From NCBI GenBank assembly GCA_032718475.1, contig JAUCBJ010002989.1, positions 1 through 64,000 on the forward strand: 64,000 nucleotides of DNA, in the 5' to 3' direction. The translations under genes and the position numbers were made by a program. Below the pieces are notes generated by a model, which saw nothing but the letters and a program-made list of their open reading frames with translations, searched no databases and was not told the DNA's origin. The DNA is from Nemertoderma westbladi. Its lineage: Eukaryota; Animalia; Xenacoelomorpha. This document shows, one piece after another, positions 7,501-46,052 of this stretch. How positions within the stretch are numbered: the first letter of the stretch is position 1; every line of letters begins with the position of its first letter.

Positions 7501-10500
7501 TGTAAGTCACCGAGAATTAATTGGAAACTTAAGGTCCGATTATTTAGAGCAGTAGTAGTTCCAGTACTCCTCTATGGGAGTCCATGCTGGGCTCTAACTG
7601 CTGAGGACACCAAATCTCTGGATGGCACATTCACAAGAATGCTACGCCGGGTTCATTGTGTCAAGTACAATGCACACATCTCCAACCAGACACTATATAA
7701 CATTGCGGGTGTCTCATTGGTTCCCCCAAGCTTGACACTAGAACAAAATCGCCTCCGCTTTGCGGGACATTGCTTTCGCCATGAGGACCAGCCAGTGCAA
7801 AATCTTGTACTTTGGCAGCCTCATCGAGTGAATAAGCATGGTGGACAGCCCATGACTTTCTTGAGACGCATCTTAAAGGACACTGGCCTTAAAGATGCGG
7901 ATGATCTAGCAAATGTCATGGGTGATAGGGAGTTGTGGCGGTGCAATTTTGTTGACAAGCCGGCACAGCATTCTTAAAAATGCAGCTGCAATGCAGCATG
8001 CCGATCCTAGTCTAGTAGTAGTTCTACTTGGTATCCGCGTTTGCGAAATTTACATAATATTTATGTTTTTTTGTTTAGTGTTTTGTTTTTAGTTTAGTTT
8101 ACTATTAAATATATTATACCGGACTAGTTGTTATCGTTGTTACATGCTATTTTTTACTTTCAGTTCTAAATCTCACATTAATTGATCTTCCGGGTCTAAC
8201 AAAGATCGCCGTCGGTGATCAACCAGCAGATATAGAAGATCAGATCAGAGATATGGTGATCACTTACATATCTAAACCGAACTGTCTGATCTTGGCGGTG
8301 ACGCCGGCTAACTCTGATCTCGCTAACTCAGACGCCCTAAAGCTCGCCAAGGAAGTCGACCCTCAAGGTTAGTTATGTGGTCGGCTTCTTGAGGAAACTG
8401 GCCTAGAGATTGTTGACAAGCTGATAGTTTGTAAGCGGATACGTTATTGTTAGTACATAGTTAGTTAGTTAGAGTACTATACTGTTAGCTCGCTAAGTAT
8501 GTTTATAACCCTATGGGTTGTTTTCTAACAGGTCTGAGAACAATTGGTGTTGTAACTAAACTTGATCTAATGGACCAAGGAACCGATGCGAGGGATATAT
8601 TAGAGAACCGATTATACCCTCTTAGAAGAGGTAAGTTGCTCGAGTTAATATCCCTGCAAAATGTAAATTGAGATTAACTTATCTATTAACCGACATTTAT
8701 CTGTATTATGTATTATTGTATTATTTTATGTATTATCTCCACCAAAACCGGGATCAATTAATATTTTCGTCATATCATAATTAATTAATCTATTTATAGG
8801 ATATATTGGGGTTGTGAACAGAAGTCAGCGAGATATTGAAGGCAGAAAAGACATCAAAGTTGCCATGGCGAGTGAAAGGAAATTCTTTTTGTCCAACCAA
8901 TCCTACCGACACATGGCTGATAGAATGGGGACACCGTTCCTGCAGAAAACATTAAACCAGGTACGTTGGACACAGGTCCTTAACAAACCATGTAAGTTGG
9001 ACACAGGTCCTTAACAAACCAGGTAAGTTGGACATCGTTCCTTAACAAACCAGGTAAGTTGGACACCGTTCCTTAACAAACCAGGTAAGTTGGACACGGG
9101 TCCTTAACAAACCAGGTAAGTTGGACACGGGTCTTTAACAAACCAGGTAAGTTGGACACCGTTCCTTAACAAACCAGGTAAGTTGGACACGGGTCCTTAA
9201 CAAACCAGGTAAGTTGGACACAGTTCCTTAACAAACCAGGTAAGTTGGACACGGCTCCTTAACAAACCAGGTAAGTTGGACACGGGTCCTTAACAAACCA
9301 GGTAAGTTGGACACGGGTCCTTAACAAACCAGGTAAGTTTGACACGGGTCCTTAACAAACCAGGTAAGTTGGACACGGGTCCTTAACAAACCAGGTAAGT
9401 TGGACACCGTTCCTTAACAAACCAGGTAAGTTGGACACGGGTCCTTAACAAACCAGGTAAGTTGGACACAGTTCCTTAACAAACCAGGTAAGTTGGACAC
9501 GGCTCCTTAACAAACCAGGTAAGTTGGACACGGGTCCTTAACAAACCAGGTAAGTTAGACACAGTTCCTTAACAAACCAGGTAAGTTGGACACCGTTCCT
9601 TAACAAACCAGGTAAGTTGGACACGGGTCCTTAACAAACCAGGTAAGTTGGACACCGTTCCTTAACAAACCAGGTAAGTTGGACACGGGTCCTTAACAAA
9701 CCAGGTAAGTTAGACACAGTTCCTTAACAAACCAGGTAAGTTGGACACCGTTCCTTAACAAACCAGGTAAGTTGGACACAGTTCCTTAACAAACCAGGTA
9801 AGTTGGACACGGCTCCTTAACAAACCAGGTAAGTTGGACACGGGTCCTTAACAAACCAGGTAAGTTGGACACGGGTCCTTAACAAACCAGGTAAGTTTGA
9901 CACGGGTCCTTAACAAACCAGGTAAGTTGGACACGGGTCCTTAACAAACCAGGTAAGTTGGACACCGTTCCTTAACAAACCAGGTAAGTTGGACACGGGT
10001 CCTTAACAAACCAGGTAAGTTGGACACAGTTCCTTAACAAACCAGGTAAGTTGGACACGGCTCCTTAACAAACCAGGTAAGTTAGACACAGGTCCTTAAC
10101 AAACCAGCTAATTTGGACACCGTTCCTTAACAAACCAGGTAAGTTGGACACGGGTCCTTAACAAACCAGGTAAGTTGGACACGGGTCCTTAACAAACCAG
10201 GTAAGTTGGACACAGGTCCTTAACAAACCAGGTAAGTTGGACACCGTTCCTTAACAAACCAGGTAAGTTGGACACGGGTCCTTAACAAACCAGGTAAGTT
10301 GGACACAGTTCCTTAACAAACCAGGTAAGTTGGACACGGCTCCTTAACAAACCAGGTAAGTTGGACACGGGTCCTTAACAAACCAGGTAAGTTGGACACG
10401 GGTCCTTAACAAACCAGGTAAGTTTGACACGGGTCCTTAACAAACCAGGTAAGTTAGACACAGTTCCTAACAAACCAGGTAAGTTGGACACAGGTCCTTA

Positions 10501-13500
10501 ACAAACCAGGTAAGTTGGACACCGTTCCTTAACAAACCATGTAAGTTGGACACGGGTCTTTAACAAATCAGGTAAGTTGGACACAGTTCCTTAACAAACC
10601 AGGTAAGTTGGACACGGGTCCTTAACAAACCAGGTAAGTTGGACACGGGTCCTTAACAAACCAGGTAAGTTAGACACAGTTCCTTAACAAACCAGGTAAG
10701 TTGGACACCGTTCCTTAACAAACCAGGTAAGTTGGACACGGGTCCTTAACAAACCAGGTAAGTTGGACACAGGTCCTTAACAAACCAGGTAAGTTGGACA
10801 CAGGTCCTTAACAAACCAGGTAAGTTGGACACTGTTCCTTAACAAACCAGGTAAGTTGGACACGGGTCTTTAACAAATCAGGTAAGTTGGACACAGTTCC
10901 TTAACAAACCAGGTAAGTTGGACACGGGTCTTTAACAAACCAGGTAAGTTGGACACGGGTCCTTAACAAACCAGGTAAGTTAGACACAGTTCCTTAACAA
11001 ACCAGGTAAGTTGGACACCGTTCCTTAACAAACCAGGTAAGTTGGACACGGGTCCTTAACAAACCAGGTAAGTTAGACACAGTTCCTTAACAAACCAGGT
11101 AAGTTGGACACAGTTCCTTAACAAACCAGGTAAGTTGGACACGGGTCTTTAACAAACCAGGTAATTTGGACACCGTTCCTTAACAAACCAGAATTCCAGG
11201 TGACAAGATACATTGTTTAGGTACACTACAGTTGTTGGTAGGCATGCGGATCAAAGAGGTAAATATGTTTATATAGGTAAATAGGTTTAAGACCTGTAGT
11301 AACTAACCACTCCGTTTGTTGTTGTTGTTGTTAATTTCCCCATTTTGTTTTTGGTCACTTCTACAGTAGGGCGTTTTACTCACTTGGTAGAGCGTTGGAC
11401 TTTGAATTCGAAATACCGGGTTCAATCCCACATGTAGGTGGAATGTTTGTTTCGAATAAATATTTCGGGATTGTGGTTTAATTAAAACTTGTAAGCATAA
11501 TTGGGGTTGGTGGTAAGCCATTCAAGGATGATGTTGTTTATTAGACGCGGAGGTTTAGGTGATTTCGAGCTTGTTATCATTTAATATTAACTTAATGTTT
11601 CAGCAATTAACCAATCACATTCGCGAGACGTTGCCAGCGTTACGCAGTCGACTACAAGCGCAGTTGTTACAGTTGGATAAAGATTGCGCTGAATATAAGA
11701 ATTACTCTCCAGACGACCCCTCACGTAAAACCAAAGCAATGCTACAGTTAGTCTACGCTATAGTATACAATTAATTACAATATTTATTTAATTATAAACT
11801 TTATTATTTATTTACCAAGCGTTAACTGGTCTCTACCGGAGCAGTCCAGCAGTGAATTATGAATCATCTGTAAAATAATATCTAGATATAATTCCTAGAA
11901 CTCGCAGTGAATCAATTTATTACAAAAATAACACGAAAAGGACGTCGCGTCGGTACATCTAAACCACGTGTTACATCTAAACCACGTGTTACATCTAAAC
12001 CACGTGTTACATCTAAACCACGTGTTACACATCTAAACCACATGTTACATCAAAACCACGTGTTACATCTAAACCACGTGTTACATCTATACCACGTGTT
12101 ACATCTAAACCACGTGTTACACATCTAAACCACATGTTACATCTAAACCACGTGTAACATCTAAACCACGTGTTACATCTAAACCACGTGTTACATCTAA
12201 ACCACGTGTTAAATATAAACAACGTGTTACATCTAAACCACGTGTTACATCTAAACCACGTGTTACATCTAAACCACGTGTTACATCTAAACTAAACCAC
12301 GTGTTACATCTCAACCACGTGTTACATCTAAACCACGTGTTACATCTAAACCACGTGTTACATCTAAACCACGTGTTACATCTAAACCACGTGTTACATC
12401 TAAACCACGTGTTACATCTATACCACGTGTTACATCTAAACCACGTGTTACATCTAAACCACGTGTTACATCTAAACTAAACCACGTGTTACATCTCAAC
12501 CACGTGTTACATCTAAACCACGTGTTACATCTAAACCACGTGTTACATCTAAACCACGTGTTACATCTAAACCACGTGTTACATCTAAACCACGTGTTAC
12601 ATCTAAACAACGTGTTAAATATAAACAACGTGTTACATCTAAACCACGTGTTACATCTAAACCGCATGTTACATCTAAACCACGTGTTACATGTAAACCT
12701 CGTGTTACATCTAAACCACGTGTTACATCTATACCACGTACGTTACATAAGGTGGGTGGGGGGGGGGGGGGGGGGTCACTAATTAACTAGAAATTTCCAT
12801 CCCTTTATTTTAGACTGGATTTTATCGAAATTAATTGATATTTTGCACACTTACTTTTACTTGTATACAATAGGTGGGTAATAAATTTCAAAAAAAAAAT
12901 TCGAATTTTTAATTTTTCTTACCTAATTAACATAATTTAAGCAATTATTTTTTAAAATTAAGAGGATCTTAGATTGATGGTCTTCAAGTTTCCAAACATT
13001 CATCATTTGTGCAAAATGGGGTCTTGAAACGACTGTATTACCAGAATTTTGATAAATGCTCATTTTCAAAAATTATTTGAAAAAACTTTTTTGTGCCACA
13101 TTTTGGACACATTTTGCCATTTTTAGCTAAATTTAACACTTTGTGACCTATGTTTCAGCTACCACAAATAAAATGAAAAATTGTAATAGGAGGTGTTAAG
13201 CACCCAATCATCATTCATACCAAATTTCACGCGAATTCGTTATTTTTTGGAAAAGCCTTCATTGCAATTTGAAAGTTATATATTGCATTTGGCAGAAAAA
13301 GCATTGAAAGTTTATTCTTAGGGTAATTTAGTTAATTGAAATCTTAAAAATGTTTTGGGGTGTTTTCTGGGACAGTGATTTAATTTCTAATGTCAATTTT
13401 CTCATTTGACAGCGTCATGTCTGTCTTTCTGTCCGTCAAAATATGACCGACTGCTGAACAGACAATGTGGTGTGGATGATGTCGAAATCTGACATTGAAA

Positions 13501-16500
13501 ATGAAATCACCAACCATGAAAACCCCCCTAACAAAATGTTTAGCTAGTTGGTGTGCTTTCCTATTACTTTGACATACAGATCGCTGGACAGACAGAAAAA
13601 CATACAGACATAGTAGGTTTTGTTAAAAGTGAAACCTGACATCGTAAATGAAATTTTCACAGGCACGGAGTAAGGTTTTTACTCATAACTTTTGAACTAA
13701 ATCAGATCAGCACCAGTGGTAGTTTAGGCTCCATCACTGCAACATAGACCAACCGCCACCCGGCACCCCCATCTAATTGTTGAACATGATCCACATTGAA
13801 TCCATTGTGGAGGAATTATTTAATTTTAATTTTAAAATGCTAATCTCTCCCGGCCGATCATGATCCAATGGTATATACTTTTACTGCCTGTAGATTATTT
13901 TACATAATTAATTAACCGTTGTTTTTGTGCCTTCAGTTTAATGTTCCTTTATTCTACTTGAGCTACCGATACAATGCCATCTGAATCCGTCTATATTCGT
14001 ATATTGCATAGTACTCTGACACTGACAGCTCTGCAGACCATTATGTGGTCTTCCGCACCATGTATATGTATAACCGATTAATATGATATCGTGTTGGGGT
14101 GAAATCTATGGTGAAATTTTTCCAAAAATGTCAAAAAATATTTTCTTTGTTTTAACATTGTAAACGTCTTGATAATGTTAAAATTAGACATCTATTTAAT
14201 ATTACATCAAAAAACGTGAACCAATTATAGACACAATTTGTAAAGTACAATCTAATTATATTAACTGTACAGTAGCTTAATATTATATTGATTAACACAG
14301 TAAAACTTTATTCTTTATTAAATATGCTTCGAAAAGAACAAGGGTAAAACAATGAAAAAGTGTAGCACCAGAACTAACCTAAAAATACTAAAAAAATAAA
14401 AAATTTTAAAATCTAAAAAAAAAATTATTTTCTAAAAAATAAAATTTGGCGCCTAATTTGCATTATTAAATCTGCCACTTTTCAGTTTGAAAACTAGAAT
14501 TTTAAGAAAAATAGAAAATATTTATTTTTAGTGGAAGATGGGCGTTAGTATTTGGAATTTGTCACGTTCAAGCTTGTAAAAGAAAATCCACCCCACCTCT
14601 CGATTCGGACTACATTGTTGCTCATTAATGTTGTATTCACCCAAACATATTTTTGTACACCCACCCTAGTCTGCAGGAATTTATTTTTGTTTATCCAGAA
14701 TAGTGCAGGAATTTTCTCAGAAGTTTGGCAGTTCCATTGGCGGGGGAGCCTCCGATGAAGATATCAACGTAGACCAGCTCTGTGGGGGGGCTAAAATCAA
14801 TAGAATATTCGTCGAAAGACTACCTTATGAGATCTTGAAGGTACCCGACAGTCCCCACTCAAGCCGTGTGTAATTCTTGTAGATTTGATCTAGGCAGTCA
14901 TTCTTATAACCTCGATCGCGTTTTACTATACACCCTCGTTTCTAACTAATTCATCGCTTTGCTCCTTCATAATTGTAAATTATCTTTCATATGATAATTT
15001 AATAACTTATTTTAAATTAATTATTGAATTGTTTGAGCTTCATTTCTAAATAATCACTATATTTTCTTATAAATAGTTAAATATCTATCTAAAATGATCT
15101 TTAATTATAGTTGTGATTGAATAAATGGAATATAATATTAATAACTTTGGTGATTATTTAGTACTTTGTCGCCGGGACTTGTGAACGAATGTATTGCCTG
15201 ATCACAATAATATCTTTAAGGTTTCTCTTTAAGAATATCCACGTCACTAAATAATATTCCAATTAGGCTCATCTCTTAACAGCTGTATCTTAATGAGTAT
15301 TAATTTGTCCTGATATTTCTAACGTGAGGTTATTAATGACTTGGCCTTTACTTGTTACTGTCAACGTGAGGTTATTAATGACTTGACCTTTACTTGTTAC
15401 TACCACTTAAGTTCGCATTGCTTATGCTAAACTGTTTTTGTTTACGTGTGTTTTCTCTGAAAGGTGGATGGATTTGTATCTCCTAATATGTCCGCGATTG
15501 CAATATTTATCAATTTTGGTTGTTTTGGCTCTCTATTTACTGGTTTGTGTATTATTATTACCCACTCAGTTAAATTGGCAATACCAAAAGTCCAAAACCA
15601 CCATAATATAAAGTCAATCACCTTGTTCCGAATATGAATCGAGAGATTTAGATTCCAATTAAATCTCTGATACTCTTTTTTCGCATTGTTAACCTAAACC
15701 AACGGCACCATAGAGATACAAGATCGGATAAATAGAGAGACTTCTACGTAATCAATGTAAGAGAACAATTACCCAAAGGGGCGGTAGAATCCAAAAACGG
15801 GCGAAATATTTATTTTGTGTAATCAAGAATAAGTATTTATATCAGAGATTCAAGACTGCCTGTTTAAAACAACATTATTCTCAGTTTGTCGATAATGACA
15901 TTTTCATAAATAAATTACCTACAACTTTTTTATCCTTCTCACAATTCTAGTCACCTAGTAGACTAGAACCGAACTGTTTAGCCGTTATATGGCTTCAATT
16001 ATTGTGAGTATTTGTTTTTTATTACGTGCCCATTGTGATGTTCTAGAACAGATTTAGTAAGTGTAACCCCCCTTTGTACATCTTAAACTTCTCTTATCTC
16101 AAGAACAATTCAGTCAAATTTGTTGATATTTGGCAAGCGTGTAATATATATAATAATTATTAAGTAATTTTAAACAGGACTAGGATGATCCATATATATA
16201 GCAATATAATTTATACAATCTATGGATATTAAACCATAAACAATAAGATATAATAACTATTTACATACTGGTGATCCGAATCAATCCTTGATTGATTGTG
16301 TTACGCTAACGAACATATAGTGAGATAGTGCAAATACAGTTACGAGAGTTCCAGAACATATAGTGAGATAGTGCAAATACGGTTCGAGTTCCAGAACATG
16401 TAAAATTTGTTAAAATATTTAAATTATAAATAAATATAGAGAAGATAAGTACCGGTAGTTCATATAAGAGAGACTAAGTAATAGATATCTAAATACAATT

Positions 16501-19500
16501 AATTAAATAATTTAAATAAAAAAAATATGCGTTATATGAGTGCCTGTAGGTGGAAAGCCAGGTGTATATAACGCCAGATCTTATGGTGGTACGCGTTCGA
16601 GAGGAACTGTGCGGCTACACGCCTTCGTTGGTGGGAGAGGTACCGCAGGTTAATCTGTGCGTTTTGGGGTGAATCAATGGCAGCGAGGATTCTCGAGGTG
16701 GAGCTGTACTTTGACAACCCACACCATAGTTTTAAGTAGAAGCCGCGTACTTTATGAACGTGAGGTTGTGTGTTCCATTCTGCTCTCGCTCTGTGTCTAT
16801 CAGTAAAAATTTCACACCCAAAAACGGTTGCTGGGAAGACGACATAGGCCCACTTTTTGATTGCACTGTCAAGTGAGATTGACTTTAGATTTACTTTGCT
16901 TGCAATCCGCAAACTAGAGGAAACTCCGCGACTCTTTAGGTGGTCGAAGTGAGCACCAAAGGTGTTTTTCGTCGACAATACTACCCCTAAATAGGAGAAC
17001 GAGTTAACGAAGTCAACTTAATCACCCTTGTATGTCAGTTTATCGTTGCGAGAAAGGCGCCCTCCCCTTCTAAACTTAATAGCCTTTGTCTTCTTCATAT
17101 TTACGGTTAGTAAATTTTGGTCGCAGTAAATGGACAGCTTATCAAGCGTAGCTTGTACATCTTATTTTTATTATTGTACGTATTTTTGTAATAAATAAAA
17201 CAAGTTGAGATGTTTCAATGTAAAACATCGATTAACAATTTACACTGTTCAATGTAAACCACGATATTAATTAAATACAACAATTATAGTATTATTCTAA
17301 CAGATTTTTATATTTCAAACTATAATGTTAGCCTTATGGAGAATCGTTATGAGGCTGAGTAAACATTCAGCCGTATAAGCATACAGCCTCCATAGTATTA
17401 ATGTTGGCACAAAGATTTCCAAATAAAACAATAATTCGATGAGAGCATAGTACAATACATTGTGTAGCCAACACACTGTTTAACTAACAGTCATTTACCT
17501 TGCACGCCAATTAATTAACATTGGGAAGAGTTATTCAGCTGAGACTGTAATAGCCAGCTAAACCAGTTAATGTTTGCTTACTGTCTGGGTTGTAGAGTAG
17601 AGTGATAATAAAACTTGGCAGAGAAAGTACTTCTTTGTTAGTTGCCCTTCCTATTGAATGCATTACCAGGCCATCTCATATACATTTTTCATGAGTGCCA
17701 GCTGGTATTTTTATCATTGTTTCTATGGCAATTTTCGTGTTTTGGGGCTATTTTTCGAAATAAAACAAGTTGAGATGTTTCAATTTAATCCGCGATTTCA
17801 CAAGTACCCATAGAAATTTATTTTCATGGTCTATTAAAATTTCATCAAAATCGTTAAAGCCGTATTTGCTCTAGATCAGTAGTCAATAGATTTTTTTTCT
17901 TACAGTAATAAAGTCTCTAAAGACTTAACTAATTATTGATGTAAGTTTTTAGAGCCAATGATATTACTTCAGATAATCAGAATATTTATGTGGTTTTTCC
18001 GGCCGTAATTTCGTTTTTTACATGTCATCCCGTTAGGATTCGATGATGAAATTATAATCACCATCTTTCGTATGAGAATCTTGTGATTATGCTTATTAGT
18101 TACACCTGAGAATCCTAGTTACACCTGAGAATCCCACAATTTGTATTTCAGGTAATACGTTTTCGTATTTATCACAATGCACACATCTCCAACCAGACAC
18201 TATATAACATTGGAAGTGTCTCATTGGTTCCCCCAAGCTTGACACTAGAACATAATCGCCCCCGCTTTGCAGGACATTGCTTTCGCCGTGAGGGCCAGCC
18301 AGTGCATAATCTTGTGCTTTGGCAGCCTCATGGAGTGAATAAGCAGGGTGGACAGCCCATGACTTTCTTGAGACGCCTCTTAAAGGACATTGGCCTTGAA
18401 GATGCGGATGATCTAGCAAATTTTATGGGTGATGGGAGTTGTGGCGGCGCAATTTTGTCGACAAGCCGGCGCAGCATGCCGATCCTAGTAGTAGTAGTAG
18501 TATTTATCACAATGTTGTTAATTCTCGGCACACTGCATTATAAGTGTTAATCAGTTGATATAATAAGGCTACCAATTAAAGTCATCCCAAAATTGATAAA
18601 AATTTGTCAAAAAAAATTATATTACACCAAATTAAATAATAGGACCCCAAAAAAATTATTCAACACCAAATAAAATAAAATCACCCCAAATCAAATTATT
18701 CAAACACCAACACAAATTTTTCAACTCCAAAAACAATTATTCAACACCAAAACCAATTATTCAATACCAAATTAAATAAATGCTCCCCAAAACCAATTAT
18801 TCGCACCAAAATAAATGACAAAACCCCCAAAATAAATATATTTTCCCCCAAATCATTACAGATTTTCCCACAACAAATACATTTTCGCCCAAAATAATTA
18901 CATTTTCCCCTAAAACAAATACTTTTTCGCCCAAAACAAATACATTTTCGCCCAAAATAAATACATTTTCCCCCAAAACAAAAAATACATTTTCGCCCAA
19001 AACAAATACATTTTGCCCAAAATAAATACATAATCCCCCAAAATAAATACTACTGCAGCAATAGGCCTAGCACTTCCTGGCAGGCCGACAAAGGCGAAAA
19101 AGGCATTTATAACTCAGTGACTCCGAAATATACAGTTTAGGCCTATAAACAGACTCAGTCACAAACTCTCAGTTTGGTATAAATGTAGGTCCCCTATAAT
19201 ATGATTGAACATTTTATTTGATTAAGTGGAAATAAATTTTGCAAAAATAAATTTTCCATAAAATATTTGGTGCTGGAATAATTTTTTTTGGTTGACAAGT
19301 GATTATTTTTGGGGGATGAATATCCCCACTGAATGAATAATTGTTTTTGGGGAATCAATAATTATTTTTGGGGGAAGAATAATTGTTTTTGGGGGATGAA
19401 TAATTGTTTTTGGGGGATGTATAATTGTTTTGGGGGGATGAATAATTGTTTTTGGGGGATGGATAATTGTTTTTGGGGGATGAATAATTGTTTTTGGGGG

Positions 19501-25500: not shown

Positions 25501-28500
25501 TTAGCTACGCTCTAGCGAGAGACTGGTGAACTGTTGACAGCCCCCACTTAAATTATATTTCAGACTATTTTCAGAATCACTATATGTGTACCAATACCGA
25601 GTTGGGATTAATTTCATCAAAGACTGACTGAGTTATTAACCTTCAAGCATTTGGCGACAGACATGCCGATGTAAAGAACGACCGACAGACCGGCCGACCA
25701 ACCGACTGACAGCGTCCTCGCCACTCGCCCCTCGCTCACCCGGCGCCCCACCATATATTGTTATGCTAAATTCCCCGATTCAATGATGATATAAAAACAC
25801 CATCTTTCGCATTAAATCTATTACTGTAATTATTTTACTTTCACCCTAACCAATCACAATTTACAGTTTATTAATTCGCTATCGACCAAACATATCCCAC
25901 TTTTACAGACTCAGTTTTATTTTACTGTTATTCTAGCAAATCCCATCTTCCCAGGCTGGTTGGTTCAGCTGTTGTTAATTTATTATTTCCCTTTAACCAA
26001 TCCAACTTTTACAATCTTTTAATGTGATATTATTTTCCTATTAACATAATAGTCAATCACACATTTACAACCTTTTTCAGCTATTCAATCACTCACTAGC
26101 AGGCTCATCGACTGATGTTTTACTATTCCTAACCAATGCAGGCTTGTCAGCGGTTATTGTTTCAGTATCCCATCTGTGTATTGCAGGAACTGTCAGTTGT
26201 TATTTTACTCTTATCATAAAACCCAACTTCGCAGTCTCATTCAGCTTTTATGATTTTAATATACTTGTAACCAATCACACATTCGCAGACTCGTCCAGCT
26301 GTTTAGCACCGACTTCGAGAATCTGATTCTCGGGAGTAGTGACGACATTGGCACGGTAGAGCTTTCAGGAGGCGCGCGAATAAATCGTTTATTTCATGAA
26401 CGTTTCCCTTACGAAGTGAAGAAGGTAGTTTTAGAGTAGTGTGTAACTGACCTTCTGTTCTTGTTATTTTGGTATGTTTCCTGGCAGTAGTTAACTTTTT
26501 GTATTTAATTTTTGCAAGTTTTTGTATTACCTGTTGCATGCTCAGTAATATTCCTCCCCTCCGCAAGCACATTACATAAACAACTATGAACAAAAGTAAT
26601 TTGAGTTTAGGGCCCTGCTACTGAAAGCATTTCACGAAATAGTAATAGTTCTGGAATGTAGAGCGCACCCTGGTCACTGAAGGTATTATGAGATATTTAA
26701 TAATACCCTATACTATACGAAACGGAAAATGTTTACCCGTCAACTTCTACAGTATTAATTATTTTTGTTGGTCGGCATTATCCGGGACGGAATTGTCCTA
26801 TCTTCAAATAATGGATACTCATTTACAAACATTTCGTATTTTTTTTCCAATCTCTTACTACTTATCCTTTTAATGTGTTGTATTTCTGCCGTTCCCTGAT
26901 GGGTGATTAATAATATTATACTTACCATATTCCGTGTGTTTGTTATTTATTTCAGATCTGTGGATGTTGTAACATCCAGACAATTACAGTGTCAACCATG
27001 TCTTCTTTATGCAAACTTGCAATTGAGCAATTAAGGTGTAAATAGTTACGATCAGCTCTAACCCCTAGTTATCGCTTTTATCGAATAGTGTAATAGGTTC
27101 AGTGATCAATCAGTTGCCAATGACTTACTTGGGGGTGATATTTGGTGACAATAACAGTGAGTTGTTTGGTTACAGAATGGTACAACGTCTTAGGTCCGAC
27201 TTTGACACACAACTCACCGGCAGTGGCGATGTTGTCGATACAGATATTTTATGCTCAGGGGCTCGTATAAACAAACTATTTATAGAACGACTGCCCTACG
27301 AAATGACAAAGGTGAACTTAATTTCGGAAAACATTGTTTTATTTACAAAAAACTTATTCAGAGAAAAATTTAGTTAGTGTGTTAATAATGTTAAGAACAG
27401 TGCTAATAATAACTGTGGCAAGACTACAAGAGCGCGCGCAAGTTTCGAGAAATGGCCGTGGTGTTCGTGGCTCAAATGTGGTGTCCGTGACACAGCTGTG
27501 GTGTCCGTGACACAGCTGTGGTGTTCGTGACACAGCTGTGGTGTCCGTGACACAGCTGTGGTGTTCGTGACACAGCTGTGGTGTCCGTGACACAGCTGTG
27601 GTGTCCGTGACACAGCTGTGGTGTTCGTGACACAGCTGTGGTGTCCGTGACACAGCCGTGGTGTCCGTGATACAGCTGTGGTGTCCGTGACACAGCGGTG
27701 GTGTTCGTGACACAGCCGTGGTGTTCGTGACACAGCCGTGGTGTCCGTGATACAGCTGTGGTGTCCGTGACACAGCCGTGGTGTCCGTGATACAGCTGTG
27801 GTGTCCGTGACACAGCTGTGGTGTTCGTGACACAGCCGTGGTGTCCGTGATACAGCTGTGGTGTCCGTGACACATCCGTGGTGTCCGTGACACAGTTGTG
27901 GTGTCCGTGACACAGCTGTGGTGTCCGTGATACTAACAGCTGTGGGGTCCGTGACACAGCTGTGGGGTCCGTGACACAGCTGTGGTGTCCGTGACACAGC
28001 TGTGGTGTCCGTGGCAAAGCTGTGGGGTCCGTGACACAGCTGTGGTGTCAGTTACACAGTCGAAGTGTTAGTGACAAGGCGGGAGCGTTTCACGACGTTG
28101 CGTTCGTGGTAAAAGTCATGCCATTTTTACCAACAACTTTGTATGTTTGATGGTGTTCGTTTGCACAGTTCTTACCATAAAGCCAATTAATTGTTGTTAC
28201 TATTGAAATTCACTCCTCCATAGCCAAATTAGCTTTCCCAGCTAGCTTTGGGGGTGTAATTTATTTATTTACAATAACTTTTTCCTGAATATGTTTACAA
28301 ACTTAAGTTTGATGCGACTGATCACACTTATGAAATCATCAGGTGAAGGGACTGGACTGTCTTTAGTTGTATCATTATCAATATACATTGTTTTACTTTT
28401 CTTACAGCCAATTATTTACATATCCTACATTGAGAAATTTGTTCATAAAATGATGCCACATCATAACAATTATGAAAATGTTATCAATTCTAACCTATTA

Positions 28501-31500
28501 TAATAAGTTATAATGTTAGCGTAACATTACCGTAACGTATTTGTGTTACAATCTTAATCACATAATAATAGTGAGGCCTTAATTAAATGCGTTCTAATAA
28601 AATAACCATCGGCAGTTTAATGTTTAAGGTAAAATAATCTCGATGTTTTTTGTTTAGATTATACAGCGTAAATTATTTTACTTTTAATATATTCCTGCCG
28701 CTTTTTTATTTTCTGATATATATCCCTCACACAATTAATTTCCATATTTTTGTTCTCGCTTTCCATTTTCCTGCATGGCATGATTCTTTATTGTTTGTTC
28801 TTTTTTCTTGACTTGGTCTTTCACCTTAGACTTGCATTTGACATTAATATCATTATATCATATCATAATAAATCATTATTCGAAATTGTTTTTGCTGATT
28901 GATAAACTTCATTTTTCTTTATAAAGTAGTGTTGTTAAAAGTAAGTGCCGTTAATATTACATAATCAATACGTACATTACATTTTGTAATATAATTCCTA
29001 TCCTATTAAGAAAAACAACTTACATATTATTTATTACGGATTTTGATTAATGCATCTGCGAAAATTAGGAAATTGCGAAATTATGTTAACAGTTTTTTTG
29101 TTGTTGGAGTAACGTTAAGCGGAGATGATACTAAATTATAACTAATTAGTTTGGAGAAGAGCAGAGGTAAAATATCCTATAAACCTTCACTTATGTTTCA
29201 TCATTTCTCTCACATAAAATTGATTATATTTTACACATTATGCGATCATTATAAGTATTTCATTAATTATGTTGCATAATGTCTATGTGCTTTTCCTTTC
29301 TCTCATATATGGTTTATTGTTATTGTAAATCGTTTCCAGTTGGACTTCGGGGAGCAAGATGTCCGTAAGGAGATCATCTACGCTATCCGCAACATCCACG
29401 GTGTCCGTACCGGACTGTTTACTCCGGATATGGCCTTTGAGTTGGTGGTCAAACGGAAAATCTCCAAACTGAAAGAGCCCGCTATTAAGTGCGTGGATCT
29501 TGTAATGGAAGAACTCAATAACGTAATCCGTAAGTGCGGCGAGAGATTACAGCGGTATCCACGACTACGGGAAGAAACGGAACGCATTGTGACCGGACAC
29601 ATTCGCGAGAAGGAAGTCCGATCCAAGGATCACATAAATCTAATGATAGACGTTGAACTCGCATATATGAATACTAATCACGAAGACTTTGTTGGTTTTG
29701 CAAAGTAAGTTGACAATATTAAAAAAATGTATCAAATAAGACAATAAATATACATATTTGTATACAAATGAACATCATGCACATTATTTTGTTTTAGTGC
29801 CAGGCATCGCACATTATTTTGTTTTAGTGCCAGGCATCGCACATTATTTTGTTTTAGTGCCAGGCATCGCATATTATTTTGTTTTAGTACCAGGCATCGC
29901 ATATTATTTTGTTTTAGTGCCAGGCATCGCATATTATTTTGTTTTAGTGCCAGGCATCGCATATTATTTTGTTTTAGTGCCAGGCATCGCATATTATTTT
30001 GTTTTAGTGCCAGGCATCGCATATTATTTTGTTTTAGTGCCAGACATCGCACATTATTTTGTTTTAGTACCAGGCATCGCACATTATTTTGTTTTAGTGC
30101 CAGGCATCGCATATTATTTTGTTTTAGTGCCAGGCATCGCATATTATTTTGTTTTAGTGCCAGGCATCGCATATTATTTTGTTTTAGTGCCAGACATCGC
30201 ACATTATTTTGTTTTAGTACCAGGCATCGCATATTATTTTGTTTTAGTGCCAGGCATCGCATATTATTTTGTTTTAGTGCCAGACATCGCACATTATTTT
30301 GTTTTAGTACCAGACATCGCATATTATTTTGTTTTAGTGCCAGACATCGCATATTATTTTGTTTTAGTGCCAGGCATCACATATTATTTTGTTTTAGTGC
30401 CAGGCATCGCATATTATTTTGTTTTAGTGCCAGACATCGCACATTATTTTGTTTTAGTACCAGACATCGCATATTATTTTGTTTTAGTGCCAGACATCGC
30501 ATATTATTTTGTTTTAGTGCCAGGCATCACATATTATTTTGTTTTAGTGCCAGGCATCGCATATTATTTTGTTTTAGTGCCAGACATCGCATATTATTTT
30601 GTTTTAGTACCAGACATCGCATATTATTTTGTTTTAGTGCCAGACATCGCATATTATTTTGTTTTAGTGCCAGGCATCACATATTATTTTGTTTTAGTGC
30701 CAGGCATCGCATATTATTTTGTTTTAGTGCCAGACATCGCACATTATTTTGTTTTAGTACCAGACATCGCATATTATTTTGTTTTAGTGCCAGACATCGC
30801 ATATTATTTTGTTTTAGTGCCAGGCATCACATATTATTTTGTTTTAGTGCCAGGCATCGCATATTATTTTGTTTTAGTGCCAGACATCGCACATTATTTT
30901 GTTTTAGTACCAGGCATCGCATATTATTTTGTTTTAGTGCCAGGTATCGCATATTATTTTGTTTTAGTACCAGGCATCGCATATTATTTTGTTTTAGTGC
31001 CAGGTATCGCATATTATTTTGTTTTAGTGCCAGGTATCGCATATTATTTTGTTTTAGTACCAGGCATCGCATATTATTTTGTTTTAGTGCCAGGTATCGC
31101 ATATTATTTTGTTTTAGTGCCAGGCATCACATATTATTTTGTTTTAGTGCCAGGCATCGCATATTATTTTGTTTTAGTGCCAGACATCGCACATTATTTT
31201 GTTTTAGTACCAGGCATCGCATATTATTTTGTTTTAGTGCCAGGCATCGCATATTATTTTGTTTTAGTGCCAGGCATCGCATATTATTTTGTTTTAGTGC
31301 CAGGCATCGCATATTATTTTGTTTTAGTGCCAGGCATCGCACATTATTTTGTTTTAGTGCCAGGCATCGCATATTATTTTGTTTTAGTGCCAGACATCGC
31401 ATATTATTTTGTTTTAGTGCCAGCGCAAGTGTATCAGATAAAGTGAAATCAGCGAGTTCCACCAAGAACGTTAGCAACCAACTTATTCGTAAGGGATGGA

Positions 31501-34500
31501 TAACCGTACATCTCAGCTTTATGAAGGGAGGTACTAAAGAATACTGGTTCGTTCTAACTTCCGATAATTTATCCTGGTACAGAGATAACACGGTTAGTTG
31601 AATATTATACTGTATATATCACCGTCGTTTTACATGTGTTAGCGCTTTTAGTAAATTATGTTCATTCAATCTCAATTTCGTATATTTCGGGCTTATAATA
31701 ATCGGAGCTGAGAATTCATGCATCTATGACGTTATAAACTGCTGGTCTGACACAATAAACGGGATTGCGCTAGTGTACCTGTCAACAAGGGCCGCTTACT
31801 ATATCGATCGTAGCTTCCCCTCTGCCTTCCTCTCATAAGTTGGTTTATTACGGTATTTGATTATCTATTGTATTTGACTGAGATACGATACCGGGAGGGT
31901 GTGCCAACACAATATAACAAGCAAATGGCTGACTAATTAATTCTGTAAGGACTCAAGTGCGGTATTTGTGTTTCTCTTTAGGAGAAACGTATAGTGACTT
32001 GCCTCTATGTACAATTATATAAATATTTCTATCGCAATTAATTTATGACAACTCTCAATCGTGATACAATTAATAATAAGAGCCTTTCTTATATTAATGG
32101 TCTGGTATATCGCCATATATTAATTATTTAGTAAGTCAGAGATAGAACAACACACTTCTATTACAATTGTCCAGATTACCACTGATACTTAATTGCACAG
32201 ACCCACCTTATATTTGGCGCGTGTAAAATCTCCTTGATTACGTTATATCGGCGGTATAATCAACAATAAGAGAGCAAATTATATAAAATATTATACTTAA
32301 GACATAAAGACATCAATTGTACAAAGACATTACAATTGAACACAGGACATTAATTGTAGGACTGCTACTAAGTGTTCGTGCGTACACTGTTTCATAAGGA
32401 CTGCTACTAAATGTTCGTGCGTACACTGTTTCGTAAGGACTGCTACTAAGTGTTCGTGCGTACAATGTTTCATAAGGACTGCTACTAAGTGTTCGTGCGT
32501 ACACTGTTTCATAAGGACTGCTACTAAGTGTTCGTGCGTACACTGTTTCATAAGGACTGCTACTAAGTGTTCGTGCGTACACTGTTTCATAAGGACTGCT
32601 ACTAAATGTTCGTGCGTACACTGTTTCGTAAGGACTGCTACTAAGTGTTCGTGCGTACAATGTTTCATAAGGACTGCTACTAAGTGTTCGTGCTACACTG
32701 TTTCATAAGGATTGCTACTAAGTGTTCGTGCGTACACTGTTTCATAAGGATTGCTACTAAGTGTTCGTGCGTACACTGTTTCATAAGGATTGCTACTAAG
32801 TGTTCGTGCGTACACTGTTTCATAAGGATTGCTACTAAGTGTTCGTGCGTACACTATTTCATAAAGACTGCTACTAAGTGTTCGTGCGTACACTGTTTCA
32901 TATGGACTGCTACTAAGTGTTCGTGCGTACACTGTTTCATAAGGACTGCTACTAAGTGTTCGTGCGTACACTGTTTCATAAGGACTGCTACTAAGTGTTC
33001 GTGCTACACTGTTTCATAAGGACTGCTACTAAGTGTTCGTGCGTACACTGTTTCATAAGGACTGCTACTAAGTGTTCGTGCTACACTGTTTCATAAGGAC
33101 TGCTACTAAGTGTTCGTGCGTACACTGTTTCATAAGGACTGCTACTAAGTGTTCGTGCGTACACTGTTTCATAAGGACTGCTACTAAGTGTTCGTGCTAC
33201 ACTGTTTCATAAGGACTGCTACTAAGTGTTCGTGCTACACTGTTTCATAAGGACTGCTACTAAATGTTCGTGCGTACACTGTTTCATAAGGACTGCTACT
33301 AAGTGTTCGTGCTACACTGTTTCATAAGGACTGCTACTAAGTGTTCGTGCGTACACTGTTTCATAAGGACTGCTACTAAGTGTTCGTGCTACACTGTTTC
33401 ATAAGGACTGCTACTAAGTGTTCGTGCGTACACTGTTTCATAAGGACTGCTACTAAGTGTTCGTGCGTACACTGTTTCATAAGGACTGCTACTAAGTGTT
33501 CGTGCGTACACTGTTTCATAAGGACTGCTACTAAATGTTCGTGCGTACACTGTTTCGTAAGGACTGCTACTAAGTGTTCGTGCGTACAATGTTTCATAAG
33601 GACTGCTACTAAGTGTTCGTGCTACACTGTTTCATAAGGATTGCTACTAAGTGTTCGTGCGTACACTGTTTCATAAGGATTGCTACTAAGTGTTCGTGCG
33701 TACACTGTTTCATAAGGATTGCTACTAAGTGTTCGTGCGTACACTGTTTCATAAGGATTGCTACTAAGTGTTCGTGCGTACACTATTTCATAAAGACTGC
33801 TACTAAGTGTTCGTGCGTACACTGTTTCATATGGACTGCTACTAAGTGTTCGTGCGTACACTGTTTCATAAGGACTGCTACTAAGTGTTCGTGCGTACAC
33901 TGTTTCATAAGGACTGCTACTAAGTGTTCGTGCTACACTGTTTCATAAGGACTGCTACTAAGTGTTCGTGCGTACACTGTTTCATAAGGACTGCTACTAA
34001 GTGTTCGTGCTACACTGTTTCATAAGGACTGCTACTAAGTGTTCGTGCGTACACTGTTTCATAAGGACTGCTACTAAGTGTTCGTGCGTACACTGTTTCA
34101 TAAGGACTGCTACTAAGTGTTCGTGCTACACTGTTTCATAAGGACTGCTACTAAGTGTTCGTGCTACACTGTTTCATAAGGACTGCTACTAAATGTTCGT
34201 GCGTACACTGTTTCATAAGGACTGCTACTAAGTGTTCGTGCTACACTGTTTCATAAGGACTGCTACTAAGTGTTCGTGCGTACACTGTTTCATAAGGACT
34301 GCTACTAAGTGTTCGTGCTACACTGTTTCATAAGGACTGCTACTAAGTGTTCGTGCGTACACTGTTTCATAAGGACTGCTACTAAGTGTTCGTGCTACAC
34401 TGTTTCATAAGGACTGCTACTAAGTGTTCGTGCGTACACTGTTTCATAAGGACTGCTACTAAGTGTTCGTGCTACACTGTTTCATAAGGACTGCTACTAA

Positions 34501-37500: not shown

Positions 37501-40500
37501 GTACCCCACAGCCCAGCCTTGGGTGGCTTTACTTCACTTTTAAAATATTTATATTCCCGAGTAAAATATTATCTTCATTTCAAGGCGAATTGAGTTCAAT
37601 ATTTTTGCGTCACTAGTGTAATAATTAATTTATTTACTAATAGTTAACTAATTATTAATTTTCCATTGGTATTATTAGGAGAAAGATAAGAAGTATATGC
37701 TGCCCCTCGACTCCCTACAATTGCGCGATGTGGAACAGGGGTTCATGTCGAAGCGATATTCATTCTCGATATTCAAACCGGAAGGGGGGTGAGTTGCATT
37801 TCTTTTATCTATCATCTCTGATTTCTTTTATCCTGGATTGACCTTTTTCAAACCGGCCAGGCCGGAACCGGAGCCGGATTTGTAAAAAAAAATCCGGCCG
37901 AAATTCCGGCCAAAGCCGGATTTTTTTTATATATCACCATAAGCATTTGCACCATATAACCTACGCCGATTTGATACTTGCTTATTTGATATAATGGATT
38001 GATTTGATAAATAAAGTGCAAATTGAACTATAATAATAGCTGTAGTTTTTTATACTATCTGAGTTAAATTGTATTCACTACAGTTTCTAAATTGCCCGTC
38101 GAATATATAAACTGGTCATTCACGGTTGTAGCTTAATCTCAATTTATAACAATACCTAAACCTACATAACATCAAACATCATAGCGCTGGGACAATATAA
38201 TAATTATTGACTAGTTATAATTAGTATATGGGTTGGGTATGTACATGTATTTATTATATATTAAGTGTTAGTGAGGCTGAGTGACTACAAACGCATTGTT
38301 TATATTTTTAGCAATGTTTACAAGGATTATAAGGAACTGCAACTCTCGTGCGACAATGTTGACACCATGGAGGATTGGAAGGCGTCCTTCCTGAGGGCTG
38401 GGGTTTATCCGGAGCAGGAGAAAAAGGACCACGATGAAGTGGCAGATGTACGTGGTACCGGTGTGGGTGTTCCTGTGGTACCGGTGTGGGTGTTACTGTG
38501 GTACCGGTGTGGGTGTTACTGTGGTACCGGTGTGGTGTTACTGTGGTACCGGTGTGGGTGTTACTGTGGTACCGGTGTGGGTGTTACTGTGGTACCGGTG
38601 TGGTGTTACTGTGGTACCGGTGTGGGTGTTACTGTGGTACCGGTGTGGGTGTTACTGTGGTACCGGTGTGGGTGTTACTGTGGTACTGGTGTGTGTGCTA
38701 CTGTGGTACCGGTGTGTGTGCTACTGTGGTACCGGTGTGGGTGCTACTGTGGTACCGGTGTGGGTGTTACTGTGGTACCGGTGTGGGTGTTACTGTGGTA
38801 CCGGTGTGGGTGTTACTGTGGTACCGGTGTGGGTGTTACTGTGGTACCGGTGTGGGTGTTACTGTGGTACCGGTGTGGGTGTTACTGTGGTACCGGTGTG
38901 GGTGTTACTGTGGTACCGGTGTGGGTGCTACTGTGGTACCGGTGTGGGTGCTACTGTGGTACTGGTGTGGGTGTTACTGTGGTACCGGTGTGGGTGTTAC
39001 TGTGGTACCCGTGTGGGTACCGATATGGGTGTTACTGTGGTACTGGTGTGGGTGTTACTGTGGTACCGGTCTGGGTGTTACTGTGGTACCGGTGTGGGTA
39101 TCGGTATCGGTACCGGTGTGGGTGTTACTGTGGTACCCGTGTGGGTACCGATATGGGTGTTACTGTGGTACTGGTGTGGGTGTTACTGTGGTACCGGTCT
39201 GGTTGTTACTGTGGTACCGGTGTGGGTATCGGTATCGGTACCGGTGTGGGTATCGGTATCGGTACCGGTGTAGGTGTTACTGTGGTACCGGTGTGGGTGT
39301 TACTGTGGTACCGGTGTGGGTGTTACTGTGGTACCGGTGTGGGTGTTACTGTGGTACCGGTATGGGTGTTACTGTGGTACCGGTGTAGGTGTTACTGTGG
39401 TACCGGTGTGGGTGTTACTGTGGTACCGGTGTGGGTGCTACTGTGGTACCGGTGTGGGTGTTACTGTGGTACCGGTGTAGGTGTTACTGTGGTACCGGTG
39501 TGGGTGTTACTGTGGTACCGGTGTGGGTGCTACTGTGGTACCCGTGTGGGTACCGATATGGGTGTTACTGTGGTACCGGTGTGGGTGTTACTGTGGTACC
39601 GGTGTGGGTGTTACTGTGGTACCGGTATGGGTGTTACTGTGGTACCGGTGTAGGTGTTACTGTGGTACCGGTGTGGGTGTTACTGTGGTACCGGTTTGGG
39701 TGCTACTGTGGTACCGGTGTGGGTGTTACTGTGGTACCGGTGTAGGTGTTACTGTGGTACCGGTGTGGGTGTTACTGTGGTACCGGTGTGGGTGTTACTG
39801 TGGTACCAGTGCGGGTATCGATATGGGTGTTACTGTGGTACCGGTGTGGGTGTTACTGTGGTACCAGTGCGGGTATCGATATGGGTGTTACTGTGGTACT
39901 GGTGTGGGTGTTACTGTGGTACCGGTGTGGGTGTTACTGTGGTACCGGTGTGGGTGTTACTGTGGTACCGGTGTGGGTGTTTCTGTGGTACCCGTGTGGG
40001 TACCGATATGGGTGTTACTGTGGTACCGGTGTGGGTGTTACTGTGGTACCAGTGCGGGTATCGATATGGGTGTTACTGTGGTACTGGTGTGGGTGTTACT
40101 GTGGTACCGGTGTGGGTGTTACTGTGGTACCGGTGTGGGTGTTACTGTGGTACCGGTGTGGGTGTTTCTGTGGTACCCGTGTGGGTACCGATATGGGTGT
40201 TACTGTGGTACTGGTGTGGGTGTTACTGTGGTACCGGTGTGGGTGTTACTGTGGTACCGGTGTGGGTGTTACTGTGGTACCGGTGTGGGTGTTACTGTGG
40301 TACTGGTGTGGGTGTTACTGTGGTACCGGTGTGGGTATCGGTATCGGTACCGGTGTGGGTGCTACTGTGGTACCGGTGTGGGTGTTACTGTGGTACCCGT
40401 GTGGGTACCGATATGGGTGTTACTGTGGTACTGGTGTGGGTGTTACTGTGGTACCGGTGTGGGTGTTACTGTGGTACCGGTGTGGGTGTTACTGTGGTAC

Positions 40501-43500
40501 CGGTGTGGGTGTTACTGTGGTACTGGTGTGGGTGTTACTGTGGTACCGGTGTGGGTATCGGTATCGGTACCGGTGTAGGTGTTACTGTGGTACCGGTGTG
40601 GGTGTTACTGTGGTACCCGTGTGGGTACCGATATGGGTGTTACTGTGGTACTGGTGTGGGTGTTACTGTGGTACCGGTGTGGGTGTTACTGTGGTACCGG
40701 TGTGGGTGTTACTGTGGTACCGGTGTGGGTGTTACTGTGGTACTGGTGTGGGTGTTACTGTGGTACCGGTGTGGGTATCGGTATCGGTACCGGTGTGGGT
40801 GCTACTGTGGTACCGGTGTGGGTGCTACTGTGGTACCGGTGTGGGTGTTACTGTGGTACCGGTGTGGGTGTTACTGTGGTACCGGTGTGGGTTATCGGAG
40901 TGATTAATAATTTTAGTTAGCTAATCATGATCCTTAATATGTCTTTGTTTACAGAGCAACGAATTATCTATCGATCCTGTTCTTGATCGACAAGTGGAGA
41001 TCATTAAATCTCTCGTTGACTCTTACATGGGGATAGTAACTAAAACAATTCGGGATGTCGTACCCAAATCCATTATGTATTATATGATTAACGATGTTAG
41101 TTGGGAAGGATTTAATTATTAATAGTTGTGACTGCGGAGTTGTTTCCGCTTTACTGGCCTCTAGAATAATGAATTATTCCCTCTCCAATATAATTGTATC
41201 TGTTACAGTGTTACCCCCCTCCCCCCCATCCCTCTGCCTCTACATTTCATTATCATTTAGACGAAGGATTTTCTTTCTGCTGAACTGCTCGCCTACCTGT
41301 ACCAGTGCGGATCCCAGGACAACCTAATGGAAGAATCGGCCGAGGAGGCACAGCGGAGGGACGATCTACTCAAAATGTACCACGCGACTAAGGAGGCCCT
41401 CCAGATCATCGGGGACATCAGCACGATGACGGTGTCCGCCCCCACGCCGGCCCCGGTCGTCGAGGAATGGTTGGACGTGGCGACCAATCAAAACTCCGGT
41501 TACGGCGGTGCTAGGTAGGACGTTTTGTTGCAAACAAACAACTTTTATAATAATTGTGTTTTTAAATGTAATGTCAATAATCAACTATTTGTCTATCTAA
41601 ACCTATCAATCACAATCAAAGATCTGAAAGACCAATCATAGATATCTTAGTGAGAAGGTAAAACGGCTAACCAACCAATCACAACCCGAGGTACTTTGGG
41701 GAGTATCAGTATGACTGCGAGTCAAATGCAGTGACAAGTTAAAGTGGAAGTATACAAATGGTGTATACATATTGGGGGGTGGGGGGGGGGGGGGGGGGGG
41801 GGGTTTACAAACCCACAAGCTGGGTACACATTTCATTATTTTTAGTAATTGTAACTACTACCCACTATAGCCCGTTATCTATTCCAGAGCACCCTCCCCA
41901 CTTCCCCACGGTACCCCATCCCGAACCCAACCTCCACAATCAACCCAGTCGCGCCCTGCAGGTCGGGCTGCGCCCTCAATGCCATCGCGCCCCGCTCCAA
42001 ACATTCCCAATCGACCCACTGGTCACATGGCCGCTCCACAGATACCAAGGTCAGTTACCATAACTTATTGGTTTTTAAACAAACATTTTCTTTTATCTAA
42101 CTGTTTGTAATAACTATTAACATACTTGTGTGTAAAGTAGCACTTTGTGTGTGTGAAGATCCGAGTGCTTTGTTACATGTTACATAAAATAAAGCCACGA
42201 GGATCAGAACACTGTAAAGTACTTTGCAACAAGTATGTATGTAGTTTTATTCCAAAATTGTAACATTACGAATTGATTGTATATATACATTATAAGTGAT
42301 AGAAATTGCACAAATTATATTAGTTTCTGTATAAATAAATGTAAAAATGACATAAATTATGTTATAAATAAGTTAGCTTATATTTATGGTGGCGTTTGGA
42401 GCCATGTTAATATTTAATATAGCTACTGGTTATTAATAGCTACCGGTAGGTAATACAGTAGGCCTATCTGGCTGTCAGGTAATTAATAATAAATACCAAC
42501 TATTGTTTAGTGGTAATCCCATCATAGTAGACATGTACCCGTGACATGTACGAAAAAGCCAGCATTTAATTATCTTGATATCGGAAACTTAAGGTCCGAT
42601 TATTTAGAGCAGCAGTAGTTCCAGTACTCCTCTATGGGAGTCCATGCTGGGCTCTAACTGCTGAGGACACCAAATCTCTGCATTGCACATTCACAAGAAT
42701 GCTACGCCGGGTTCATTGTGTCAAGTACAATGCACACATCTCCAACCAGACACTGTATAACATTGGAGGTGTCTCATTGGTTCCCCAAAGCTTGACACTA
42801 GAACAAAATCGCCTCCGCTTTGCAGGACATTGCTTTCGCCGTGATGACCAGCCAGTGCATAATCTTGTACTTTGGCAGCCTCATGGAGTGAATAAGCATG
42901 GTGGACAGCCCATGACTTTCTTGAGACGCATCTTAAAGGACACTGGCCTTGAAGATGGGGATGATCTAGCAAAGGGAGTTGTGGCGGCGCAATTTTGTCG
43001 ACAAGCCGGCACAGCATTCTTAAAAATGCAGCTGCAATGCAGCATGTCAATCCTAGTAGTAGTACTTTCAGTTATTTATTATAGTATTTACTATAATATT
43101 TTCAGTTATCGCCGTAACTTTACAGCTCGCGGTCCGGACATTATAACAACAACAATACAATACTAATTGTACAGGCCAAATAAAATACAATGCTATAATG
43201 TCCTCTAAAGTTGTAAAGTGCTAAATAACAACTCGTTGTTAATACTAACGGCATTAAGTAATGTTACAATTTTGGAATAAAATTATTTGTATTGCTTATA
43301 AAATATTATTATTATTCATAAAGTTTCCGTTTCCAAAGGAATCGAATTCAAACAATTGTATGTTGAATACATTTTTGGTTCATTTCTTAATAAATTCCTT
43401 AATTTAATTGATTATCGTTAATTTACGTTTCGGTGTAGAGCTGGAAATATAACTGTCGAAAAAATCGCAACTGGCCCGAAATACTATCTTTATATCTATC

Positions 43501-45968: not shown

Positions 45969-46052
45969 GGAGAGGCTAGTTGACTTTTAGTCCAGATTGG
46001 CGGTGGCATTCCCCCTTTCAGCATCCGGTTGCAAACATCCAATAATGGTCTG
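45969..46052 (-). mobile_element. RTE family B RT fragment forming the edge of the satellite
   Basis: ggagaggctagttgacttttagtccagattggcggtggcattccccctttcagcatccggttgcaaacatccaataatggtc aligns to 2722-2805 (MLKGEKPPPIWNKSQL vs MLKGGMPPPIWTKSQL). Confidence 0.9.

Follow-up and report, generated by a model that had tools for sequence, protein, structure and literature searches.

A dynamin gene carrying 54 extra copies of its own acceptor junction: a mirage minisatellite that is probably spliced out as intron

By sequence homology, the + strand of the window, which is the whole 64,000-nt stretch of DNA analyzed here, carries the greater part of an animal dynamin gene. A 14-exon gene model, built with any one of three alternative exon copies, is stop-free and gives a protein of 776-778 aa, with internal exons of 99-365 nt. 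Among the 120 matches listed, the best identity to a homologue is about 68-70%, and a quick tree with 20 of these 120 homologues leaves the window dynamin on a long unplaced branch. All 12 constitutive donors of the gene have a G at position +5, and GTTAGT accounts for 5 of the 12. The stalk exon at 29340-29704 corresponds to residues about 377-497 of Dynamin-1 (PDB match, E about 1e-52). Used as a homologue query, the exon downstream of the repeat array described below returned 0 matches at E <= 1e-5 among 40 candidates, and a 27-nt exon probe returned 0 matches against metagenome contigs. The features around the junction of interest are as follows.

29340..29704, + strand: dynamin stalk exon, 365 nt, with a phase-2 donor AAA/GTAAGT (Dynamin-1 match and gene model)
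29705..29797, + strand: unique intron remnant, 93 nt, ending in the first acceptor, which has an AG-free zone of 57 nt and, at -21, the sole TNAY-like motif
29798..31417, + strand: acceptor array, 54 x 30 bp, each unit being a 6-nt exon head plus a 24-nt intron-end copy with polypyrimidine tract and TAG
30248..30907, + strand: about four repeats of 5 units (150 bp) each, forming a higher-order block within the array (unit string and lag-5 match)
30938..31099, + strand: CAG/GTATCG in four units (GT at 30944, 31004, 31034 and 31094), possible 6-nt microexon donors without a +5 G
31418..31592, + strand: exon for the stalk-PH linker and the start of the PH domain, 175 nt (gene model and linker comparison)

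The junction is repeated with exact regularity and, as a repeat, exceeds chance by far. There are 55 copies of TTTTGTTTTAG, ending at 29797, 29827 and so on to 31417, with 30 as the sole spacing (1620 = 54 x 30), and the motif is absent from the rest of the window. TRF reports the array at 29779-31423 with a period of 30, 54.8 copies and 0% indels. The initial annotation had described 54 decoys at 30-bp intervals from 29797, over 1620 bp and with no indels, a description that holds exactly. Five variable columns divide the 54 units into 9 types, and their mean pairwise identity is 95.3%. Tract and TAG are kept at all 55 sites; when scored with a crude matrix built on 15 other acceptors of the gene, the decoys reach 8.0-9.6 (9.6 for the first) and the last site 8.7, as compared with a median of 4.7 for real acceptors. 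A second in-frame AG follows 6 bases past each of the 55 sites (+5/+6), giving 110 candidate AGs in all, and for exon 31418-31592 this alternative AG is at 31423. A microexon is an exon of 3-27 nt set between an acceptor and a donor. The four units reading CAG/GTATCG, whose GT positions had been given correctly in the initial annotation, could supply such donors; AG/GT occurs in 4 of the 54 units and AG/GC in 33. CAG/GTATCG fits 6 of 9 donor consensus positions, where real donors fit 5-8, but it is without the +5 G that the 12 constitutive ones share.

Read in the dynamin frame, the array encodes one 10-residue peptide in 24 units and its T/H/Y variants in the other 30, with 0 stops, so that the stop-free frame claimed earlier does extend across all 54 units. 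This frame runs from stop to stop over 29772-31601 (609 aa) and has no Met ahead of the exon, as had also been noticed. Use of any upstream site would consequently be predicted to insert 10n residues without a stop, a further claim that the sequence bears out. The sole stop in the unit is the acceptor TAG itself, which the phase-2 intron places out of frame. Another forward frame, too, runs open across the entire array (29740-31446, 568 aa), so open frames come easily to the acceptor repeat.

The unit composition points to the source of the array. One unit type (type B, 7 of the 54) is the 6-nt exon head followed by the final 26 nt of the unique intron remnant, exact save for one 2-nt gap. The array thus began as a junction duplication, in agreement with the earlier proposal that its template was the 3′ splice junction of the exon it precedes. 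The 93-nt unique stretch at 29705-29797 is likely the intron as it was before expansion. A junction piece, consisting of the dynamin intron end and six exon bases, was tandemly duplicated and then amplified to 54 extra copies, presumably by slippage or unequal exchange. Unit types also recur with a period of five: the lag-5 match is 0.51 versus 0.16 in shuffles, a value reached by 0 of 5000 shuffles, so 150-bp blocks were re-duplicated. Such re-duplication would be ordinary minisatellite turnover. With a boundary-spanning unit, a size of 30 bp, splice signals kept in the copies, and concerted turnover with differing boundaries, the acceptor array is a junction-derived ‘mirage’ minisatellite. 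It is extremely improbable, in our judgment, that the haplotype is a damaged allele that mis-splices, or that the array length is an assembly error. Only a single haplotype is seen and mirages are reported to be unstable in length (PMC3087553), but every modelled exon is open, and zero indels together with a coherent higher-order pattern are unlike read error.

Tandem arrays are common at the locus. Ten arrays longer than 200 bp, with unrelated units of 18-39 bp, make up 54% of the window; within the gene span, the share taken by eight of these is 42%. Arrays above 200 bp being routine in the window, the acceptor array is unremarkable in its setting. Three of the eight intragenic arrays touch a junction (P 0.005), two of seven when the acceptor array is left out (P 0.04), and one of seven by strict overlap (P 0.21), which gives only a hint that junctions are hot-spots for arrays. 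Two of the others lie at or next to a donor.

8954..11191, + strand: donor-side mirage with a 31-bp unit from an exon 3′ end and its donor; 72 donor positions, of which 67 are CAG/GTAAGT
38452..40892, + strand: 23-bp array that starts 4 nt past the exon 38312-38447 donor and stops 62 nt short of the acceptor that follows

The donor-side mirage has its source in the end of exon 8800-8960 and the donor of that exon. We infer that the true donor is the first, after 8960, and the 67 CAG/GTAAGT decoys are nearer to the consensus than this first donor (GTACGT). All 70 of the downstream GT decoys reach a stop, 46 of them shifted and 24 in frame, whereas the 39-nt source of the array would have been in frame and open. 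Through the 23-bp array, an intron that would otherwise measure about 70-90 nt reaches 2.5 kb.

Elsewhere in the window, a satellite with a 37-bp unit, at least 18 kb long (46017-64000), begins within a dispersed sequence. This sequence also occurs at 2722-2805, with 90% identity over 84 nt and one satellite unit included, suggesting that the satellite may have been born within a mobile-element copy. Additionally, an intron holds a stretch that we take by eye to be LINE-like reverse transcriptase (window about 6400-7950), and shorter, presumably related fragments lie at 18180-18480 and 42590-43030.

Which of the 55 acceptors is used can be approached through the protein. Splicing at the last acceptor (31417) would give the 175-nt exon and a stalk-PH linker of 26 residues, and 26 aa is the commonest linker length in the homologues (29 of 107, with 21-27 aa in 77 of 107). 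This count covers the 107 of 120 homologues with both anchors; the other 13 were excluded because an anchor motif is missing. The agreement in linker length makes 31417 the likely working acceptor. With the first acceptor, on the other hand, the exon would grow to 1795 nt, and the 540 residues added would have a mean hydropathy of +0.39; the native linker is at -0.43, and homologue linkers average -1.05. One of the two outcomes foreseen in the initial annotation was that exon definition picks the last site, and this branch agrees with the homologue linker lengths as well as with the published mirage, F7 and CBS cases discussed below.

The splice signals themselves do not favor the last site. 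Only at the first site do a long AG-free zone and, at -21, a branch-like motif persist. Intron definition could act there, with just 93 nt separating this site and the donor; closeness of the two ends is believed to be what gets short introns recognized (PMC3245539). Masking of the decoys by RNA structure was considered and rejected: the predicted unpaired fraction is 0.16 at the last site, the least accessible, versus 0.48-0.70 at the decoys, and the fold z-score is only -1.6. Hairpin enrichment in the array units was significant alone in 0 of 9 cases (P 0.07-0.41). If the last site wins, the deciding signals would have to lie in the exon and in the donor that follows, which amounts to exon definition. 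Our preferred reading, to which we give a probability of roughly 0.75, is that this is a tolerated mirage array, likely spliced out as intron via the last acceptor. The upstream exon would be joined to the exon-adjacent site, the array would be removed with the intron, and cross-exon definition, in which the 31593 donor takes part, would probably account for the choice of the last site. Some leakage would be compatible with this. Exons of 300 nt or less arise from the last five sites only, so a leak would most likely add 10-40 residues, and small insertions can be tolerated, since the dynamins of amphioxus, tick and fish include isoforms that are 6-18 residues longer at the stalk-PH junction. 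It is plausible that a few percent of splicing leaks to the nearest decoys, adding 10 or 20 residues; such a leak would escape NMD and would be noise, not a program.

A different route to a normal mRNA would take two steps. A 93-nt intron would first be spliced to the first acceptor, after which a second splice, from a GC or GT donor just past the 6-nt head and into the 31423 AG, would remove the array, making the array a nascent Rogers-type intron. Intron gain of that type calls for a usable AG/GT proto-splice site in the duplicated segment, through which the extra copies are excised. The first acceptor does have the best signals, by sequence the geometry would restore the exon exactly, and intron birth by duplication has been demonstrated experimentally, according to PMC3265369. 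We nevertheless hold this route to be highly improbable, as CAG/GCATCG fits only 5 of 9 consensus positions and is without the +5 G found in 12 of 12 constitutive donors, while GT versions occur in four late units only.

The perfect register of the array raises the question of whether it was selected, as the initial annotation had suggested. We compared it with 27,328 hypothetical junction duplications in the dynamin gene (16 acceptors, 15-70 nt), in which a unit is both 3n and open by chance with a frequency of 0.22 overall, 0.25 for the array's intron phase and 0.16 for the array's own junction. Changes within the array show no coding constraint: 4 of the 5 variant columns are non-synonymous, as against 20 of 30 possible transitions. 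The half of the unit holding the tract and AG is unchanged in 54 of 54 units (P = 0.02 under uniform mutation, 0.12 with G/C weighting), which speaks against a clean choice of the last site. The strongest control on frame selection lies within the same gene, in the form of the 31-bp donor array with its stop after every decoy. One junction array of the gene entered the frame (32 to 30) and the other left it (39 to 31), and the two arrays give no sign of a frame rule; a weak filter is compatible with two cases. Frame preservation was thus at chance level (0.16-0.25), and the claim of selection for 3n is not supported. The register would probably be accidental. In the literature, no genome-wide frame tests of splice-site VNTRs were found among the matches listed, which is a weak negative.

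Two hypotheses would give the register a meaning. One is a functional ladder, in which the nearest decoys are used to an appreciable extent and in a regulated manner, dynamins with +10n linker residues are made, and the 3n unit is kept by selection. It could draw on the fact that 54 of 54 decoys are intact and in frame, that the change from 32 to 30 restores the frame (the 32-nt source form would have met a stop), that other dynamins have natural inserts at this junction, and that human ABCA7 retains one VNTR unit in about 2% of transcripts (PMC5954066). Against this stand the chance-level odds, the donor array of the same gene that moved out of frame, the non-synonymous variants, an insert rich in Cys/Phe/Leu amid a polar linker, and the in-frame pseudo-sites of F7, which are described as unused (PMC1557585). 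A ladder is, on balance, quite unlikely. We consider it very unlikely that a 2-nt deletion, by making an in-frame 30-nt unit out of a stop-containing 32-nt duplicate, turned the array into a copy-number-variable, length-tunable source of +10n dynamin isoforms at the stalk-PH junction, a place at which other animals have cassette exons.

The other hypothesis is a weak purifying filter, in which the last site is mostly used and leakage makes frameshifting arrays costlier, leaving the 30-nt form free to expand and the 32-nt form not, or, as a variant, in which loss of the branch motif weakened the decoys and let the array expand. The 5′ flank of the array differs from every unit by 2 nt, and all 54 units carry this 2-nt gap, which restores the frame and at the same time deletes the only TNAY-like motif, at -21. 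The polarity of the difference, however, needs an outgroup, and the flank may have gained the two bases; the last, working unit is also without the branch motif; and the out-of-frame donor array reached 72 copies in the same gene. A filter of either form is unlikely. The tolerated, spliced-out array remains our preferred reading.

The gene has another feature, which may be more interesting than the acceptor array. Three copies of one exon are found upstream of the stretch that matches vertebrate exon 10a/10b.

14699-14840, + strand: dynamin exon copy 1, 142 nt, candidate mutually exclusive exon
26289-26424, + strand: dynamin exon copy 2, 136 nt, candidate mutually exclusive exon, closest to other dynamins (69%)
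27176-27311, + strand: dynamin exon copy 3, 136 nt, candidate mutually exclusive exon

Their protein identity is 43-51%, all three are 1 mod 3 in length, and each gives an open model. The donors of all three lack the +5 G. From sequence, they look like mutually exclusive exons, and the motif of the triplicated exon is present twice in just 1 of 120 homologues. The vertebrate exon 10a/10b pair is itself reported, in the account of PMC2916854, as absent from invertebrate dynamin.

The locus is of use beyond the question of its origin. Every decoy is in frame and stop-free, so mis-splicing would be spared by NMD and steady-state RNA would report the fidelity of 3′ splice-site choice. The array is in this way a natural reporter of acceptor choice among 55 near-identical sites. 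Intron definition predicts the first site (93 nt) and exon definition the last, at opposite ends of the array, and the donor array, which is out of frame and belongs to the same transcript, provides an internal control. Were the ladder true and regulated, an essential endocytic gene would have put a minisatellite to work as a splicing device.

Arrays of this type have precedents. Mirage minisatellites are described in the amphioxus genes for Adh3, troponin C, globins BflGb6 and BflGb9, and PGBD5, where by these accounts they leave regular splicing undisturbed (PMC3087553, PMC3902484); their units are 10-160 bp and the arrays are unstable in length (PMC3087553). Like the window array, they are tandem copies of an intron/exon boundary that bear splice signals. 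Either the 5′ or the 3′ boundary may be copied, and BflGb6 repeats the intron 3′ end and exon head as seen here, with 3-6 copies as compared with the 54 extra copies in the window. Unlike the amphioxus mirages as described, the window array is in frame and stop-free in every unit, donor and acceptor mirages occur together in one gene, and the host is not a lancelet by its dynamin sequence.

Human genes offer parallels too. The 37-bp VNTR in intron 7 of F7 repeats a donor, and the exon-adjacent copy alone is reported to be used, although not every pseudo-site leads to a premature stop (PMC1557585). Its terminal unit spans the real junction while identical pseudo-sites are silent, making it a direct match to the window's 31-bp donor array; on the donor side and with 5-9 copies, it is the mirror image of the acceptor array. 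In the human CBS 844ins68 allele, the junction between intron 7 and exon 8 is duplicated, splicing takes place at the downstream copy and the insert is skipped (PMC2630376). This is an acceptor-side junction duplication like the one in the window, but a single one of 68 bp that was not amplified. The unit retained in human ABCA7 belongs to a 25-bp VNTR in intron 18, whose length is reported to affect splicing of the next exon, mainly through exon skipping (PMC5954066). Its units carry a splice site, as do those of the window array, but on the donor side and out of frame. Since the exon after the window array is 175 nt, ABCA7-like skipping would shift the dynamin frame. The junction-repeat class is one already described, and the window array is most likely a large example of it in one more animal lineage.
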